A stretch of 56,286 nt of DNA from a virus (Duplodnaviria; Caudoviricetes), in the IMG/VR virus record IMGVR_UViG_3300047548_001281, positions 1 through 56,286 of that record, one strand, 5' to 3'. Both the position numbers and the translations under genes were made by a program. Below are positions 706-54,052 of the stretch, piece by piece. Every line of letters starts with the position of its first letter. Position 1 is the stretch's first letter. A model generated the notes under the pieces. It saw only the letters and a list, made by a program, of their open reading frames with translations. It ran no database searches and was not told where the DNA came from.

Positions 706-959
706 GACCACCTCAATACGAACATGGTAGCATCCCGTTCATTTTCAAAACCAAACTCATCATAGTATGGTGCCACGCCCAAAGCATTTCTGATTACGCC
801 TATCTCTTTAGTTTTTACTATTGTCGCACCTTGTGTAGCCAACCATTTATGATATTCTTGTTCCCAAACTTTGTCATCGTTGGGTAGGTCGTCTATGAAA
901 TGCTTTCTAAAGTAGACCTGTGTGCTGTAATACAACTCGTAGGTAGGTAAAAGGATCAC
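702..959 (-). CDS. small protein, LRW-family
   Basis: C-terminus FGFENERDATMFVLRWS; GTGA start/stop overlap. Confidence 0.7.
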   Translation of the reverse strand: MILLPTYELYYSTQVYFRKHFIDDLPNDDKVWEQEYHKWLATQGATIVKTKEIGVIRNALGVAPYYDEFGFENERDATMFVLRWS

Positions 960-1177
960 GACCACCTCAACAAAAACCAAACTTGATCTTTACTCTTGCG
1001 AAAACGAAATATGGGATTATATGCGTAGGTCCAAACTACATTGTTTTTTGGATTTTTAATATTTTCGTTTATCCATAATACCATCTGATAGTACTTTTCT
1101 ATGCTGCCATTGATTTCTAATTCATCTTGCCAACCATAAAAATCAAAATCATTGACCCAATGTTCACTATGAATCAT
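956..1177 (-). CDS. small protein, LRW-family
   Basis: C-terminus FRFRKSKDQVWFLLRWS. Confidence 0.7.
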   Translation of the reverse strand: MIHSEHWVNDFDFYGWQDELEINGSIEKYYQMVLWINENIKNPKNNVVWTYAYNPIFRFRKSKDQVWFLLRWS

Positions 1178-1240
1178 GACCACCTCAACCCAGCCAATGT
1201 AGCCCAATGTTCCTTACCTTTACGGAATTTGATGGTAACA
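1174..1240 (-). pseudogene. orphaned 3' end of an LRW-family gene
   Basis: Encodes TIKFRKGKEHWATLAGLRWS*, a near-copy of the C-terminus of 1926-2264, with no credible start. Confidence 0.7.
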
Positions 1241-1275
1241 CATAAATAATTTTTTAACAAGAAATATTGGAAAAA

Positions 1276-1343
1276 CATAAATAAAAATGCGGGTCGCGAC
1301 ACGCCAATGTCCATCCGCTCTATAACTGAATAGGAGTTACAGC
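1276..1343 (+). promoter_or_regulatory. late-type promoter (ATAAATA), structured leader and RBS-sequestering hairpin
   Basis: GCGGGT/ATCCGC and GACA/TGTC stems; TAACT/AGTTA hairpin overlapping AGGAG; same layout at 27284-27354. Confidence 0.65.
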
Positions 1344-1952
1344 ATGTATATTTATCCCCAATCAAGATACCCTTTTGGATATTATGTTTACGCTTACATA
1401 AGATCAAAAGATTCAACCACAGCAAAAGCAGGGACACCGTATTATATAGGTAAAGGTAAATCAAAGCGAGCCTATCAAAAACACGATAATGTTCCAGTTC
1501 CACGAAATAAATCACATATTATTATAGTTGAAGAAAATTTAACCGAAATTGGAGCATTTGCGTTAGAACGCCGATTAATAGCATGGCATGGACGAAAAGA
1601 TTTAGGTACTGGTATATTGATGAACCGACAACAGGGTGGCGAGGGGTCCTCAGGAAGAAAAATGTCCGACGAAACAAAATCAAAAAAATCCAATTCTATG
1701 AAAGGATATAAGTTTGGGCCGCCGAGTGAGGAGTCAAACATAAAACGCCGATTAGCCATGAAGGGTAGAGTCCCGTCCAATAAAGGAAAAGCAAGATCAC
1801 CGAATGCCATAGAAAAAGCAAGAAAATCATTAACAGGATACAGGTACGAAAAGGTGGAATGTCCATACTGCTCTTTATTAGGAGCAGCCCATGCCATGAA
1901 GCGTTATCATTTTAATAATTGTAAGTTATCCCCATTTAAGAGCAAAGTATGA
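1344..1952 (+). mobile_element. free-standing GIY-YIG-like homing endonuclease with NUMOD3-like repeats and C-terminal Cys/His motif
   Basis: YYVYAY...[11 protein letters not shown] motif, conserved E and N, basic repeats, CPYC..H..NC tail; opposite strand to its neighbours. Confidence 0.8.
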
Positions 1953-2264
1953 TGCCAAATGTTCTTTGCCGCGCCGAAATTTAATAGTCAATTTATTTGT
2001 ACTGATATCGTCGTCCATTAGGGTCCAATCCCAATTTAGTCCTTGTTTTCCTACCAAGTTTTCAAGTTCAGGCCTATAGTGGTCATTTGGGTCCGCACTT
2101 TCTATTTGAATTGTTCCTCCCCCTCCTGCTTCAACAGAATCAGTCCATCCTACAGGCCATTTTACCTTGATTTTGGTACCGGGCATAAACATCCACCAAA
2201 GTTTGTTCATCAAACTCAGCGACACCTTTAATCTATGATTAGACCAATAATAGGGACTGAACAT
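1926..2264 (-). CDS. LRW-family protein
   Basis: ORF ending [20 protein letters not shown]; 3' end overlaps the endonuclease. Confidence 0.7.
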
Positions 2265-2444
2265 TTATGACCACCTCAACATAGCAAAAATTCTATCTTT
2301 CTCATTGTCAATATACCAAGTATCATATGCCTTTGCAGCAAATTGGGGTCCAATCTTTTCTGTACCCTGATATTCGCAAGTGATATTATTCTTTTCGCAC
2401 CATTCCCAAAACATGTCACGATACCAAACTGGCACCCTAAACAT
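2265..2444 (-). CDS. small protein, LRW-family
   Basis: C-terminus WYIDNEKDRIFAMLRWS. Confidence 0.7.
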   Translation of the reverse strand: MFRVPVWYRDMFWEWCEKNNITCEYQGTEKIGPQFAAKAYDTWYIDNEKDRIFAMLRWS

Positions 2445-3618: not shown

Positions 3619-3878
3619 TATTCAACCCCAAAATGTTTTTCAATCTTCTCACTTGTTTCAGACAATGCTCGGTTCCATTCTGGATTCTGGTCACCGCCCT
3701 TATTACAATCTATTACATATATACATTCTTCAACGATCAACTCAGCGAACTTGCCTGCCACAATGGCTTGAAAGTAGGGCTTGTCGCTATCTTCCTTACC
3801 CACATTTTCATAGGCAAATTCTAGGGCGTATTGGTAAAGTGCTAGGGCTTGTCCATTCATTTTCTTTCTCCAATCCAT
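3618..3878 (-). CDS. small protein, 'KFAELI...HFGVE' paralog family
   Basis: KFAELIVEEC...IEKHFGVE; start may be at the second Met. Confidence 0.7.
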   Translation of the reverse strand: MDWRKKMNGQALALYQYALEFAYENVGKEDSDKPYFQAIVAGKFAELIVEECIYVIDCNKGGDQNPEWNRALSETSEKIEKHFGVE

Positions 3879-4032
3879 CTAACAAAACCAACAACGGCAG
3901 CAATACACAAAGCCGGTAACATTAGTGGATAGTCATACCATTTGTCTTTTCTAAATTTATAACCCATAATAGAAAAGAAATAGCAAACACTAACAATCGT
4001 CCAAATAACAAGAAACAAGAAAAAATATCCCA

Positions 4033-4639: not shown

Positions 4640-4800
4640 TATTGTTCCTGAGGAATCTCACCATTGAGGTCTTCTTCAATCTCCAGAACCCACTCGACAG
4701 GGATAGCAAGTCGTTTAGCAACAATGTAGGGAGAATTTCCCATTTCCAGTTGTTCTTGTACCGAAGTGTATAGTTCAGACATACGCGACATAATAAACTC

Positions 4801-5094
4801 CTATTTAAGGTAACCTTTGATAACACTCTTTAGTTTAGGACCACGACCTTGATTCCACAGCGGCTGTTGTTTAGTTTGATTGGGATAACATCCTTTTGCC
4901 CATTTGTAATGCTCATCAAACAACTTACCGCATTCCATCATTATCTTATCTTTTTGAGTTTTTGTCAACTTTTGTTCAGCGATAAATTTGACCAGATTTT
5001 CCTTATTGATTTTGTGTTGGTTGGGATCCCTAGAACCAAATTGGTTGAAATGGTCAAAGTAATAGATACGCTGGACTAACTCTTTGAATTCCAT
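4801..5094 (-). CDS. hypothetical protein
   Basis: ORF from MEFKELV; TAG stop overlaps the next SD. Confidence 0.55.
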   Translation of the reverse strand: MEFKELVQRIYYFDHFNQFGSRDPNQHKINKENLVKFIAEQKLTKTQKDKIMMECGKLFDEHYKWAKGCYPNQTKQQPLWNQGRGPKLKSVIKGYLK

Positions 5095-26672: not shown

Positions 26673-27022
26673 TATACGATTACCTGTTTATGATTTTGAG
26701 CGCGGTCGCTATAGATTTGTTCGCCCTTGCTTCTAATCAGATCCACAATAAATTGTGGATTATCTCGGAATTGACTTTCAATGTCCTCGCGCGACAAGTC
26801 AGTGCTTTGAAAGGAATAGATTTCATAGTGGCGCTGAGAGTTATACCTTGCTCTTAAAATAAGCATATTTAGGTTAGGATACCCAGTTAGCTGTTCTTCT
26901 TTGAGAATAGCAATTGTACGCTTATGTTCCCACTCGGTGACATTGATTAGACACTCCAGCCCAAACATGTCCCACATGGCTAACCAAGTGATAGTATTAC
27001 TTGTTTGATTTTGTGAGTTCAT
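26672..27022 (-). CDS. hypothetical protein
   Basis: ORF with MWDMFGLE and RARYNSQRHYEIY. Confidence 0.7.
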   Translation of the reverse strand: MNSQNQTSNTITWLAMWDMFGLECLINVTEWEHKRTIAILKEEQLTGYPNLNMLILRARYNSQRHYEIYSFQSTDLSREDIESQFRDNPQFIVDLIRSKGEQIYSDRAQNHKQVIV

Positions 27023-27239
27023 AAATCATTTCCGCTTTAGAGATGGCATCTGATAAACTAGGGCAGTTTTCAGCAGCCGCCAAAATCTCTTTCCATTTAA
27101 ACCAGCGATTTTTTTCTAATACGCTGGGATCCACCTTGATTAATTCACGTTCACCTGATAGCGAGTCACGGGCATAAACCGTTTTCCCACCATCAGGCGA
27201 TTCGTATATCATTCTAAAATTATTTTTTGTGATCGTCAT
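26997..27239 (-). CDS. hypothetical protein
   Basis: IYESPDGGKTVYAR motif. Confidence 0.7.
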   Translation of the reverse strand: MTITKNNFRMIYESPDGGKTVYARDSLSGERELIKVDPSVLEKNRWFKWKEILAAAENCPSLSDAISKAEMIYELTKSNK

Positions 27240-27283
27240 AATACATTATCTAACATCTTTCTATAATAGTCAAGATAATTGGG

Positions 27284-27354
27284 TATAAATAGAATTGAGG
27301 ATCGCGGTACTGGTAATACCCACCCTCTCTAATGCTAAACAGGAGCACCAGCAA
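27284..27354 (+). promoter_or_regulatory. TATAAATA late promoter, structured leader and RBS-sequestering hairpin
   Basis: GAGGAT/ACCCTC and GGTA/TACC stems; TGCT/AGCA hairpin over AGGAG. Confidence 0.65.
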
Positions 27355-27954
27355 ATGTACTTATCATTGTGTGATAATGGATGTGGAAATACATCTATAC
27401 GTTTTACCAAAAAGGGTAAAGCAGTTTGTTCTATTAGGCCTGCGGGCTGCCCTGCTGTATTACAGAAAATGAAAGAAACAAGCTTACAGCGATACGGAGT
27501 GCCTAACGCAAGTTCATCTTCCATTTGTAAGGAACAGCGTAGGCAAAAGGTGTTACAAAAATACGGTGTTGATAACGTGTCCAAAGCACCAATCATTAAG
27601 CAGAGATTATCTAAACAAAAAGAAACATACTGGAATGCTGTTTACGATAATAAGAAATTTACTGTTGAGGGACTAACCCGAAACCAATACAGGCACAGGT
27701 GCCAACAGTATGCCAATACTCAATACGAACGCTATAAAAATTTATTAGACCCTGATAATCAGCGCGGCAAGCATTGGCATTTAGACCACATTTATAGTGT
27801 AACAGATGGCTTCTTAAACGATGTTCCGATAAACATTATTTCAGACATTTCCAATCTAAGGCTTATTAGCGATAAAGAAAATTATAAAAAACACAAAAAA
27901 TCAGAAAAAACCCTCGAAGAACTTTACGAGGGTTTCCTAAACAAAAATAGTTAG
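27355..27954 (+). mobile_element. free-standing HNH-type homing endonuclease
   Basis: N-terminal Cys cluster, (R/K)YGV.N repeats, WHLDHIYS...NLRLI...N..K; ATG at 27355 has an AGGAG SD. Confidence 0.72.
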
Positions 27955-29252
27955 TTTTTGTGGTCGTTATAAAGCGCGTATTGCCCAAAAGGAGGGTTCG
28001 GATTCGGATCACCATGAATGATCCAGGTTGTGTCACAAAAATCCGGATCACCCCAACTTCCTGCCGGGTAGCCGTCAGTGAAAACGATTAGACGTTTAGG
28101 AGCACGACCTTGTTCCTTAAGATGATCGAAGATCACCGTAAAGTCAGTACCCCCGCCACCTTTAGGTTCGTAGTTTTCAACCGTGTCCATATTCTCGCTA
28201 GTAAAGTCCTGAGGATTGTAGACCGCAGTATCGAAACAGAATACGTGGACTTTATAGCCGTCGAACGATTCCATCATGCCAGCAATCTCACCCAGGAATG
28301 CCTGAGCCTGTTTGTTGCTGATAGAACCCGACATGTCGATTGCCACATCAACGTCGATTTCCTCACCAGGAGTCATGCCAGGCATGATAGCATCCATGTG
28401 CCAACCGCGGCGCGAAGGACGCATCCAAGAGTAGTCAGTACGAATAGCCGAAGTCAGGTTAGTCTGAATCAGTTCGCGCCACGGCATGATCGGGCTAGTA
28501 ATCTGTTTAATCATGCGCTCGACACCTGCGGGGAGAGTACCTGCTTCCGCAGACTGGGCGGCGTTCAGAATAGCCTGCTTGACTTCCTGACGTACCCGCT
28601 CCTTCTCTTCATCAGACATTTTAGGACGCTTGCCGCGGCCCTTGCCTTCCTTGTCACCGCCGTCGCTATCGCCCTCACCGTCATCATCGCCATCCATGTG
28701 ATCGTCTAGCATTTGGTCTAGAAGATCATCAATGGAGATTTTTTGTACGTTTTTCATCAGGTCATCATAGATTTCCTCGGCAGACTTGCCCTCGTACTTT
28801 TTTTCGTAGAGACAAGGAACCGTAGTGATGAATTGACCTACCTGATGTTTTTTGAGGTCAGCGTTGACCGCATAGTCGTCGGCGATGTTCCAAATCTGAG
28901 GGTCGCGATTCTCGCGGCGGCCCATGTGATCGTAGACCACGTGAAGAACCTCGTGCCCTACTAGAAACTCAACCTCTTTAGGCTTGAGCATCATAATAAA
29001 GCGGCTGTTGTAATAGAATTTTAAACCGTCAGTAGCCGCAGTACCGCACCATTCATCAGCATTGACCAGTTGCAGGCGAGTCGCCAGATTGCCAAAGAAT
29101 GATTGACGTAGCAGTAGACCAATACGAGCCGTAATCAGCCGCTCGCGGGCCTGATGATCGACCTTGGGGTCAGTGGGGCCGACAAGCTTGTCGAATTTCT
29201 TGTTACGCTTACGCTTGCCATCGATTACTTCGGACATTTTGACTGCTCGCAT
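27951..29252 (-). CDS. HEXXH metallopeptidase-like plus vWA domain protein (DUF2201-like)
   Basis: TAATDG, HEVLH, DMSGS MIDAS, GGGGTDF, FTDGY. Confidence 0.88.
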   Translation of the reverse strand: MRAVKMSEVIDGKRKRNKKFDKLVGPTDPKVDHQARERLITARIGLLLRQSFFGNLATRLQLVNADEWCGTAATDGLKFYYNSRFIMMLKPKEVEFLVGHEVLHVVYDHMGRRENRDPQIWNIADDYAVNADLKKHQVGQFITTVPCLYEKKYEGKSAEEIYDDLMKNVQKISIDDLLDQMLDDHMDGDDDGEGDSDGGDKEGKGRGKRPKMSDEEKERVRQEVKQAILNAAQSAEAGTLPAGVERMIKQITSPIMPWRELIQTNLTSAIRTDYSWMRPSRRGWHMDAIMPGMTPGEEIDVDVAIDMSGSISNKQAQAFLGEIAGMMESFDGYKVHVFCFDTAVYNPQDFTSENMDTVENYEPKGGGGTDFTVIFDHLKEQGRAPKRLIVFTDGYPAGSWGDPDFCDTTWIIHGDPNPNPPFGQYALYNDHKN

Positions 29253-45620: not shown

Positions 45621-46405
45621 AATTTCGTGGCGTAATCAATATGGTTAAGCCCAGCAAACCTGACTCAAGGGACTATAGATATCAGATAAAAAAGATATCA
45701 TTAAGACCTGAAGTTAATTTGCGAGAATTCGATAGTTTAGTAGAAGATCAAGGGGAATTAGGTAGTTGCGTGGGTAACGCAATTACCAATTCCTATGAGT
45801 TATTAGTCAAGCAATCATATCCTGATTACTTTGTAGAATTAAGCAGATTGTTTGTTTATTACAATGCCCGTATGATAGAAGGCACTGTCAATGAAGATTC
45901 TGGTGTTTATGAGATAAGAAACGCGCTAAAAGGCGTCAAAGAATATGGTATCTGTAAGGAAGAATTATGGCCTTATGATCCCGCAAAAGTAAATGTCAAA
46001 CCTCCCGATGAATGCTATGTTGAAGGTAGGCCAAGGACTATATCAAGCTATACTTCGCTATCTACTATAGGAGAAATGTTGGAAGTATTGAACTTAGGTA
46101 AGCCCGTAGTCATTGGCATGGATGTTTATTTGAGCTTTATGTATGTAAATAAAAGTAATCCTGTAGTTTCAATGCCCAACAGCGGGGACGCTTATGTAGG
46201 TGGACATAGTGTAAATCTTATGGGATATAATATAGAAAAATCTTGGTTTATTGCAAAGAATAGTTTTGGATCTGATTGGGGCGAAAATGGATATTGTTAT
46301 ATTCCATTTGCTTACGTTGAACAGTATGTTTTTGAAAAGTGGATATTTGATATCGTAGATCCCAAAACTACCATGTTAGTAGATGGTGCGCCTGGTGGGG
46401 ATTGA
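45605..46405 (+). CDS. papain-like cysteine peptidase (C1)
   Basis: DQGELGSCVGNA, SRLFVYYNAR, GGHSV, KNSFGSDWGENGY. Confidence 0.9.
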   Translation: MVDHLKFRGVINMVKPSKPDSRDYRYQIKKISLRPEVNLREFDSLVEDQGELGSCVGNAITNSYELLVKQSYPDYFVELSRLFVYYNARMIEGTVNEDSGVYEIRNALKGVKEYGICKEELWPYDPAKVNVKPPDECYVEGRPRTISSYTSLSTIGEMLEVLNLGKPVVIGMDVYLSFMYVNKSNPVVSMPNSGDAYVGGHSVNLMGYNIEKSWFIAKNSFGSDWGENGYCYIPFAYVEQYVFEKWIFDIVDPKTTMLVDGAPGGD

Positions 46406-46458
46406 ACCCACTAATCAGAGGTTTAGAAGCTCCTGCCTATCCATTTAGCTTCAGGCGC
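46384..46458 (-). tRNA. tRNA with an Arg-like body; best-pairing register gives anticodon CUA (amber suppressor); alternative tRNA-Arg(UCU)
   Basis: GCGCCTG/CAGGCGC acceptor stem, encoded ACCA, GTGGG-TTCAATC-CCCAC T-arm; anticodon arm GGAGC-TTCTAAA-CCTCT. Confidence 0.8.
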
Positions 46459-53095: not shown

Positions 53096-53385
53096 GGTTA
53101 TTGGGTTACAAGGTTACCAACCCCGTGAAGATCACGCTGCTAGGCGTGTTTCTCCAAAATATGCATCATTTGCTGCATTTATTTTGTTTTGCTCCTACGA
53201 CCAGGTTACCCCAATCCTAACGACTTCTGCTTTGCCGATTCTAATTTCTGCCCTTCTAACCCCGTCGAATCCTTTCATCCCCATCAAAAGAATTACTAGC
53301 ACAACTCTTTTGATGTGAATGGTGGAGATGACGACATACGATAGTCGTGTCCGCAATTAGTACTTCAGAAACTTTCAAGGATATG
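53096..53385 (-). ncRNA. ssrA: circularly permuted (two-piece) tmRNA
   Basis: Acceptor piece ends CATCTCCACCA at 53320; coding piece starts GGGGATG..GATTCGAC at 53282; G3.U70 pair; tag AANDAYFGETRLAA* at 53176-53132; outer ends approximate. Confidence 0.88.
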
Positions 53386-53389
53386 AATC

Positions 53390-54052
53390 CTAACGAACAT
53401 TAGTATTTATACTATGTCTACCTATTACCAATAAATCATTATTGTAAATTTCCCGTCTTACTTTATTATTTTTACCTTCATCTAAATTTACCAAATATCC
53501 CCTATCTACTATGAGTCCAAATATATCTATCAATTTAGATTCTATTGCGAGGGCCTGAACTTCTGTTAAATCTTCTTTTATAATTTGTACAACTACATCT
53601 TTATTGGACTTTTGAATTTTTTGCCTATATTTTCTATGTGAGTCATTTCTATCTAATTCATAAGCCCTATTATTTTGCCCTTTACCTATATAAAATGGGC
53701 GGTATGTTAAACCCAATGTGGCCGCAAAAGTGGTTATACCGTGTTTGCCAATGGCAACTTTATGGTTGGGATCACAATGGGCATAAACATAATATTTTTG
53801 ATTTAGGTCTCCTGCTTCGTATAAATGTGTTATATCAGTATTATAAATTCTGTTACAAGCATCAAATACATCTTTGGAATGGGCATTCTTTGAATAGAAT
53901 CCCTCTTTTGATCTTAAATTACCCAACATATTCTTAGACCAAGATAAAAGTTTTTTTAACTGCTCCTCTGATTTAGCGTCTACTTGGATATCATACAATG
54001 AACTTTTGGTCAGTTGTCCATTAATATTCACCTTTTTTCTTTCAATCAACAT
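53390..54052 (-). mobile_element. GIY-YIG-like endonuclease next to the tmRNA
   Basis: YYVYAHCDP...PFYIGKGQNNRAY...E.KLI...LVN. Confidence 0.72.

Follow-up and report, generated by a model that had tools for sequence, protein, structure and literature searches.

Large phages carry homing endonucleases as their main selfish elements, and it is only partly understood how a host tolerates dozens of them. The controls known for these genes, namely late promoters, hairpins over the ribosome binding site and autorepression, are gene-specific, and antisense RNA control of a mobile-element gene is known from RNA-OUT and RNA-IN of IS10. Here we describe an element that occurs twice in a 56,286-nucleotide (nt) stretch of DNA from a virus of the Caudoviricetes (IMG/VR record IMGVR_UViG_3300047548_001281, positions 1 to 56,286; hereafter the window), together with its many relatives. 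The element is best explained as a self-contained, roughly 90-nt cassette placed at the head of homing endonuclease genes, and its base pairing is maintained on the strand opposite the gene. On balance we think it probable, if only slightly so, that the cassette comprises facing T4-type late promoters and yields a cis-antisense small RNA (sRNA) of about 65 to 70 nt, which would lie over the leader of the nuclease mRNA and restrain the nuclease.

Closest in mode of action, by analogy, would be art200/tnpA of IS200 and RNA-OUT of IS10. In IS200, art200 is described as a short structured RNA that lies opposite the 5′ untranslated region (UTR) of tnpA, shows perfect complementarity over about 90 nt and keeps ribosomes from binding; in the sections cited here, the tnpA mRNA leader carries a stem-loop over the Shine-Dalgarno sequence and the promoters point toward one another at the 5′ end of tnpA (PMC4513863). 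Closest in setting are the T-even phages, for which the cited sections describe late promoters lying within masking hairpins at gene e, I-TevI, I-TevII, I-TevIII, segB and Aeh1 mobE (PMC3014915, PMC2988022). CfrI of the T4-like cyanophage S-PM2 is an antisense RNA opposite a homing endonuclease gene, reported at about 225 nt and as linking that gene to psbA in the portion cited (PMC2984593); it was the sole printed case of an antisense RNA opposite a phage endonuclease gene found in our literature search. The PeSL motifs of T4-like phages, finally, are described in the cited parts of PMC4122927 as composite terminator/promoter motifs tied to plastic inserted genes.

The cassette resembles the IS200 and IS10 systems in joining a selfish DNA-cutting or DNA-moving gene to a short antisense RNA opposite the 5′ UTR (predicted here), and in its predicted antisense stem-loops, which cover the ribosome binding site. 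Its inverted box in codons 2 to 4, as a putative promoter, would face the 5′ end of the gene. In those elements, however, the controlled gene is a transposase, whereas the cassette serves phage homing endonucleases and is common to many unrelated nuclease families; moreover, both of its promoters are T4-late-like, so that both RNAs would appear at the same stage. With the T-even masks it has in common a predicted late promoter of the TATAAATA type immediately before an endonuclease gene, a structured RNA at the ribosome binding site, and a promoter hexamer complementary to the start region. The T-even hairpins, as the cited sections describe them, are gene-specific sense-strand structures whose 5′ arm is missing from late transcripts, whereas late transcripts would retain both cassette hairpins, which follow the promoter and are conserved from one gene family to another. 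The cassette further differs in keeping its pairing on the antisense strand and in carrying a second, inverted box inside the gene. The sense-strand structure that marks the T-even masks was not found in it, and a 5′ arm at or upstream of the late promoter is offered only by a weak TAAATA/TATTTA helix without covariation. As for CfrI, compared by description only, the cited portion of PMC2984593 does not present it as a portable 5′ cassette of many nuclease genes. Like PeSL, the cassette is a small conserved regulatory module. The resemblance of its minus-strand end to PeSL is limited to a minority of loci, a sigma70-like promoter following the stem-loop in 35/110. The PeSL stems, in the parts cited, are simple hairpins beside early promoters and are not tied to endonuclease genes; in the cassette, by contrast, the presence of the sigma70-like promoter varies with context, and two hairpins flanked by late-type boxes make up the core.

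On the gene strand the cassette consists of a TAAATA box, five bases, an invariant G, a hairpin (P2) with two bulged C, CUCUAA, a second hairpin (P3), CAGC and the start codon, and it ends with an inverted TAAATA box in codons 2 to 4, five bases past CAGC (Table 1). A first-pass annotation of the window had listed a structured leader upstream of two nuclease genes, and every element of that leader is present and correctly placed in both copies. The interval drawn there holds as far as it goes but is too short, since the conserved unit extends into coding sequence, to TATTTA at 1349-1354 and TACTTA at 27358-27363. The core motif TCGCG-N15-24-CTCTA occurs twice in the window against 0.24 expected, a count reached in 1 of 100 shuffles. 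Folding either of the originally drawn intervals as a single sequence was unremarkable (z of -1.43 and +0.39, not significant), and the case therefore rests on relatives. A further ATAAATA lies at 1242-1248 (+), 35 nt upstream of the copy 1 box, and is a possible tandem late promoter.

Table 1. Positions, strands and supporting observations for features of the two cassettes, their genes and the inserted block in the window.
Feature	Position	Strand	Basis or remark
Copy 1 late-type promoter box ATAAATA	1277-1283	+	Sequence; predicted box for endonuclease gene 1
Copy 1 box, opposite strand	1277-1283	-	U-rich tail of predicted antisense RNA
Copy 1 hairpin P2, GCGGG.../...TCCGC	1289-1318	-	Outer stem, two bulged bases, inner stem; predicted 3′ hairpin of antisense RNA (alignment pair counts and fold)
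Copy 1 G1289	5 nt past box	+	Putative sense mRNA start
Copy 1 TCTA	1319-1322	+	Sequence
Copy 1 hairpin P3, 8 pairs	1320-1327 with 1335-1342	-	Pair covariation and predicted fold
Copy 1 P3 loop			AGG (Shine-Dalgarno) on +, CCU on -; predicted fold
Copy 1 A1322.C1340			Mismatch on +, G.U pair on -; sequence
Copy 1 AGGAG	1332-1336	+	Inside TAACT/AGTTA hairpin
Copy 1 CAGC	1340-1343	+	Sequence
Copy 1 ATG	1344	+	Sequence
Copy 1 inverted ATAAATA box, gene codons 2-4	1349-1355	-	Putative late promoter of antisense RNA
Copy 1 putative antisense start	Opposite C1343, 5 nt past inverted box	-	Sequence
Copy 1 predicted cis-antisense sRNA, ~67 nt	1277-1343	-	Predicted fold
Homing-endonuclease-like gene 1, 202 amino acids (aa)	1344-1952	+	Seg-type GIY-YIG-like N-terminus (by eye), NUMOD3-like repeats
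Copy 2 late-type promoter box TATAAATA	27284-27291	+	Sequence
Copy 2 hairpin P2	27297-27327	-	Sequence, alignment, predicted fold
Copy 2 A27301.C27323 in P2			Mismatch on +, G.U pair on -; sequence
Copy 2 hairpin P3, 8 pairs	27329-27351	-	Sequence and predicted fold
Copy 2 P3 cells 27331.27349 and 27332.27348			A.C on +, G.U on -
Copy 2 AGGAG	27341-27345	+	Within TGCT/AGCA hairpin
Copy 2 CAGC	27349-27352	+	Sequence
Copy 2 ATG	27355	+	Sequence
Copy 2 inverted box TAAGTA (TACTTA on +)	27358-27363	-	One mismatch to TAAATA
Copy 2 predicted cis-antisense sRNA, ~68 nt	27285-27352	-	Predicted fold
Homing-endonuclease-like gene 2, 199 aa	27355-27954	+	DUF7487; HNH-like motif near C-terminus
Inserted block, ~709 base pairs (bp)	27242-27950		Absent from closest relative; holds gene 2, cassette and 42 nt upstream

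Relatives were collected by scanning viral contigs with a strict pattern (TAAATA-N10-TCGCG-N17-22-CTCTA-N8-16-AGGAG), which returned at least 120 loci, and from these 125 sites with 111 distinct sequences. A variant scan, in which CCACG replaced TCGCG on the 5′ side only, gave 35 loci, 33 of them new, from which 25 distinct copies were parsed; TAAATA, TCGCG or CCACG, CTCTA and AGGAG are thus forced by the patterns. A covariance model built from the relatives scored the window copies at 91.2 and 81.9 bits, the next-best score in the window (19.7 bits) being the reverse strand of copy 1. The same model recovered 117 copies across 100 loci of the set, some 15 of them missing the strict pattern; a complete 360-kb record contained 13 copies, and three further large records contained 2, 1 and 1. 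The search with such a model that the first-pass annotation had proposed has thus yielded many further homologs. Its proposed comparison with Rfam was also made and gave no described family: Rfam 15 at gathering thresholds identified in the whole window only a permuted transfer-messenger RNA (tmRNA) and a transfer RNA (tRNA), both away from the cassettes, and among eight weak matches at E≤10 in four cassette-bearing loci none fell on a cassette. Among 50,697 records of cultured phages no match was obtained with megablast of window positions 1000-2200 or with blastn of a consensus-like copy, and the covariance model found nothing in T4, Phosso and Atu_ph07 and one non-significant match in PA5oct (23.3 bits, E = 0.14). 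A full-text literature search, with subscription journals and supplementary files outside its scope, found no published description of the cassette. Homologs and covariation being present and an Rfam match absent, neither outcome that was to have spoken against the annotated structure was observed.

Stem covariation is evident across the 111 copies, in which 92.2% of cells are paired compared with 78.8 ± 0.4% after shuffling (reached by 0 of 500 shuffles) and 32-45% with slid partners. In P2, analyzed with RNAalifold and pair counting, 96.9% of cells are paired and compensatory changes occur in 7 of 11 pairs. What had been annotated as an invariant TCGCG/CA internal loop is instead helical, with U25-A46, G27-C45 and G29-C44 pairing around the two bulged C, and pairs 25-46 and 27-45 covary between subfamilies: in the 25 distinct copies of the CCACG set, C25 faces G in 25/25, and pair 27-45 is A-U in 10 and A.C in 15. 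The two bulged bases are conserved and may bind a protein. P3 is likewise longer than first annotated, its base being formed by CUCUAA and CAGC to give eight pairs and a 7-nt loop, with covariation of pairs 66-92, 65-100 and 64-102. A hammerhead-like core on the minus strand was considered and rejected by eye, since its CUGAUG varies (CUGGUG, CUGUAA) and is base-paired.

The strand on which these stems form was read from the cells that are not Watson-Crick. On the gene strand 1165/1221 P2 cells of the 111 copies are Watson-Crick, and the others include 32 A.C versus 8 G.U, or 22 versus 7 when distinct haplotypes are counted; the 200 cells of the independent CCACG set contain 28 A.C, no G.U and no other such cell. 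In P3, A56.C103 is fixed in 111/111 copies, and full pairing is attained by 0/31 haplotypes on the sense strand and by 14/31 on the antisense strand. A.C on the gene strand is G.U on the other strand, and because transitions strike both stem arms alike, the asymmetry points to the strand opposite the nuclease gene as the one under selection. Between G20 and CAGC the folding energy averages -16.6 kcal/mol on the antisense and -12.5 kcal/mol on the sense strand, the antisense folding better in 100/111 copies (Wilcoxon p = 2.5e-18). For copy 1 the values are -17.5 kcal/mol (frequency of the minimum-free-energy structure 0.38) against -15.1 for the matching sense strand, and for copy 2 they are -20.8 kcal/mol (frequency 0.34) against -9.2; both antisense folds of the window consist of two clean hairpins and a single-stranded U-rich tail. 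Wobble asymmetry and folding energy thus both favor the opposite strand over the cis-regulatory fold of a nuclease mRNA leader that had first been proposed.

Both boxes share the geometry TAAATA-N5-G, the G on the plus strand being the foot of P2 and that on the minus strand facing the final C of CAGC, one base ahead of P3. Of the 28 occurrences of ATAAATA in the window, 10 sit 8-70 nt upstream of a correctly oriented open reading frame (ORF) start, compared with 0-4 for most 7-mers of the same composition. In every copy 60-70 nt separate the left box from the ATG downstream, as forced by the scan pattern. The right box, TATTTA, is at least 90% conserved and perfect in 97/111 copies, at a fixed distance from CAGC in 82/111. 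Since the ATG is offset by 0, 1 or 2 bases, TATTTA is read in three frames (M-x-I-Y, M-I-F-I and M-Y-L), and CCAGC and the spacing persist where the ATG lies upstream of CCAGC. A coding explanation for TATTTA was rejected on these two grounds; its conservation is at the nucleotide level, and the same first residues are imposed on unrelated proteins. Past P2 the minus-strand tail has the consensus ACUUUUAUUUAU, with at least six U in its first ten bases in 86/111 copies.

The mechanism that we favor would run as follows. Both boxes would act as late promoters facing each other, the left one producing a nuclease mRNA that starts at the foot of P2 and the right one an antisense sRNA of about 65-70 nt that starts opposite the last C of CAGC. 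The first hairpin of this sRNA, of 8 bp, would expose in its loop CCU, the complement of the Shine-Dalgarno AGG, and would be followed by the bulged hairpin and a U-rich tail over the left promoter, probably a terminator. Because the two RNAs would be copied from the same bases on opposite strands, the sRNA would be fully complementary to the mRNA leader and could prevent ribosome binding or provoke decay. Mutual interference between the facing promoters would add to this, and nuclease output would be low. More tentatively, the cassette may represent a new and very abundant class of phage cis-antisense sRNAs dedicated to the control of homing endonucleases: a bidirectional late module in which each promoter overlaps the end of the other RNA, swapped among at least five unrelated nuclease families and imposing their first four codons, with up to 13 near-alike copies per genome whose sRNAs could target, in trans, the mRNAs of other copies or of a co-infecting phage.

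Several observations weigh against an antisense sRNA, which is itself a prediction from the sequence and a modelled fold. A look-up of data sets containing window positions 900-2300 gave no RNA set, but two DNA entries from one study, possibly the source sample. The inverted box is imperfect in 14/111 copies (TACTTA in 11, TATATA in 3), copy 2 of the window among them, and in a few matches found by the covariance model only, the left box is separated from the G by 3-4 nt rather than 5. A simple terminator scan called no terminator on the minus strand at either window copy; the U tract is interrupted and begins two bases past the stem, and the P2 stem is bulged. Pairing of TAAATA with TATTTA in a longer RNA could account for their complementarity with no second promoter. 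Finally, because the scan patterns demanded them, the invariance of the forced motifs in the scanned sets holds by construction and carries a sampling bias.

The first-pass annotation had further suggested that the element travels with diverse nucleases, and this is borne out by at least 136 distinct copies, whose endonuclease-like gene products form seven N-terminal clusters. An ORF of 40 aa or more follows 116 of the 125 sites, giving 108 distinct proteins; of the other nine sites, some are at locus ends and some carry genes that appear broken. Pfam domains identified among the 101 complete downstream proteins were NUMOD3 (30 proteins), HNH (12), HNH_3 (7), SegE_GIY-YIG (7), I-TevI_DNA-bd (3), HNH_4 (3), HNH_5 (3), GIY-YIG (2), DUF7487 (1) and DUF2089 (1). 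Clustering was performed on residues 5-95 of the 108 proteins, as whole proteins merged nearly all via common NUMOD3 tails, and the clusters had 30, 30, 23, 18, 5, 1 and 1 members; inspection by eye assigned the four largest to Seg-like GIY-YIG, HNH and two additional GIY-YIG-like types. Protein 1 of the window has a GIY-YIG-like N-terminus of Seg type, as seen by eye, and belongs to the 30-member Seg-like cluster; its NUMOD3 match is below cut-off. For protein 2, annotated as HNH, no Pfam HNH model matched at E≤0.01; the protein matches only DUF7487 and a PHROG family named homing endonuclease, and has an HLDH...N...N motif near residue 140, seen by eye. Truncated ORFs lie under three cassettes (L065, 6092-6217, 42 aa; L106, 8421-8627, 69 aa; L077, ~4768-4869 (-), with a stop at codon 5), where the cassette seems to outlive a decaying endonuclease gene.

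Multiple copies within one record were also observed. In a 524-kb record, cassettes at 174948-175049 and 522501-522602 both score 89.6 bits and are 347 kb apart, which a duplicated endonuclease gene or a long repeat may explain. Locus L022 has near-identical cassettes at 1288-1394 (+) and 3787-3893 (-), in opposite orientation and 2.5 kb apart, both with the ATG upstream of CCAGC and each heading a different Seg-like protein. Orthogonal stems within one genome were not seen, a GTAGT/ACTAC outer stem being common to 6 of the 13 copies of one record.

The surroundings of the cassette bear on another reading, namely that the inverted box drives the adjacent host-phage gene and that the fold is the 5′ leader or an insulator of that transcript, repairing polar damage rather than regulating the nuclease; we regard this as unlikely. 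Of 101 loci, 35 have both neighbors oriented against the nuclease gene and 21 have both co-oriented with it; since the cassette is identical whatever their orientation, it goes with the nuclease gene. In 59/102 loci the nearest upstream ORF is divergent, as an outward promoter would lead one to expect, but in the 43 others it is co-oriented, ending a median of 3 nt from the box, so that an outward RNA would serve no gene and run antisense into the neighbor. The sigma70-like promoter past the cassette on the minus strand (35/110 loci versus 19.3 ± 4.0 after shuffling, at a preferred offset) accompanies 22/59 divergent versus 6/43 co-oriented loci; it is not a constant part of the cassette, and the neighbor seems to bring or need its own promoter. 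The hairpin with its U-rich tail, moreover, resembles a stop signal. In favor of outward transcription, T4 endonuclease genes are described in the cited part of PMC2988022 as embedding promoters for downstream host genes, and copy 2 has split two overlapping host genes, the small downstream one now lying 46 nt beyond the cassette on the minus strand.

Next to copy 2 lies a gene for a 433-aa protein (27951-29252, -) that is found in a fixed place in 80 related contigs at about 77-88% identity, and of these 80 loci one (L163) has the cassette and gene at this site. The 433-aa protein matches the PHROG family 'HNH endonuclease' (E = 1.3e-109) and behaves as a core gene, not as a mobile endonuclease. 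In the closest relative the site is empty and the 433-aa gene overlaps a small downstream gene, to which it is there translationally coupled. The inserted block is flanked by a duplication of about 20 bp of this overlap, the left copy of which has no start codon. Within the block, a sigma70-like promoter pointing outward (TTGACT-17-GATAAT, 10/12 matches, 27245-27273, -) lies between the cassette and the small host gene (26997-27239, -). The first-pass suggestion that the element marks a mobility end is not supported: in this one clean empty-site comparison, the block begins 42 nt upstream of the promoter box. A conserved 3′ element after the genes was not found either, the commonest 8-mer being present in at most 5/101 flanks. 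For copy 1 no clean empty site was found, relatives of its right-hand neighbor being 38-57% identical with loose synteny, and 0/37 of them had a cassette downstream of that gene.

Somewhat less probable again is a mask of the T4 type, in which TAAATA and TATTTA would form a closing helix (P1) that hides the start in read-through RNA, late transcripts without the 5′ arm being translated, an arrangement that may coexist with an antisense RNA. The two hexamers are complementary, 92.7% of P1 cells are paired, the minimum-energy fold of a 131-nt stretch around copy 1 contains the helix, and at 21/101 loci the co-oriented neighbors would be able to read through; the mechanism itself is described as established for T-even endonuclease genes in the cited sections of PMC3014915 and PMC2988022. 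However, P1 amounts to 6-7 A-U pairs closing a multiloop of about 90 nt and lacks covariation, column pair 8-122 being unpaired in 35/111 copies, and sense read-through is not expected at the 35/101 loci where both neighbors are opposite. A P1 mask would also leave the pairing of P2 and P3 on the other strand unexplained.

The sense leader of the first-pass annotation, with P2 as a 5′-terminal stabilizer or protein-binding hairpin of the nuclease mRNA and P3 hiding the ribosome binding site, appears to us improbable. The predominance of Watson-Crick cells in P2 (1165/1221) means that this hairpin can form on either strand; with the left box as promoter, its position would coincide exactly with the 5′ end of the mRNA. 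P3 takes in the final two bases of AGGAG, and a protein may bind the two invariant bulged bases. Yet A.C takes the place of the G.U that a sense fold would be expected to show (28 versus 0 in the independent set, 32 versus 8 in the main set), one A.C of P3 is fixed in 111/111 copies, sense P3 averages -2.5 kcal/mol, and the sense fold of copy 2 is worse than its shuffles (z = +1.17). Single-stranded DNA hairpins of the bottom strand for recombination or mobility, like integron attC sites or IS200/IS605 ends, are very improbable: DNA hairpins tolerate G.T, so that the strand asymmetry fits here too, and attC sites likewise combine a conserved structure and fixed extrahelical bases with variable sequence, but no recombinase or HUH-type gene accompanies the cassette (the downstream genes being endonuclease-like or unassigned), the insertion boundary at the empty site is away from the hairpin, no conserved 3′-end partner was found, and the promoter-like boxes, anti-Shine-Dalgarno loop and U-rich tail are features of RNA.

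The window is a 56-kb piece of an uncultured virus with a completeness rating of 12%, and its large terminase shares about 50% identity with the terminases of the jumbo phages Phosso, PA5oct and Atu_ph07. The carriers of the cassette are best explained as uncultured, T4-related large and jumbo freshwater phages. An ORF resembling gp55 is present in 4/4 large cassette-bearing records, the match to T4 gp55 being weak but significant (E 1.5e-6 to 4.4e-5); a search of the window fragment with T4 gp55 gave no match. The permuted tmRNA of the window (53132-53382, -; 61.4 bits against a gathering score of 47) has a late-type box, TATAAATA, about 20 nt upstream on the same strand (53404-53411, -), and the tRNA gene is at 46387-46458 (-; 45.6 bits).

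If the antisense reading is true, the logic of transposon control known from IS10 and IS200 extends to homing endonucleases by way of an exchangeable cassette, and copies acting in trans would set a genome-wide or cross-phage ceiling on nuclease activity. A large structured-RNA family missing from Rfam would be added, and the cassette would account for the identical first four codons of unrelated phage nucleases. The covariance model is a sensitive marker of free-standing endonuclease genes in viral metagenomes, and the cassette is a small candidate part with which to obtain late and tightly limited expression in phages of the T4 type.

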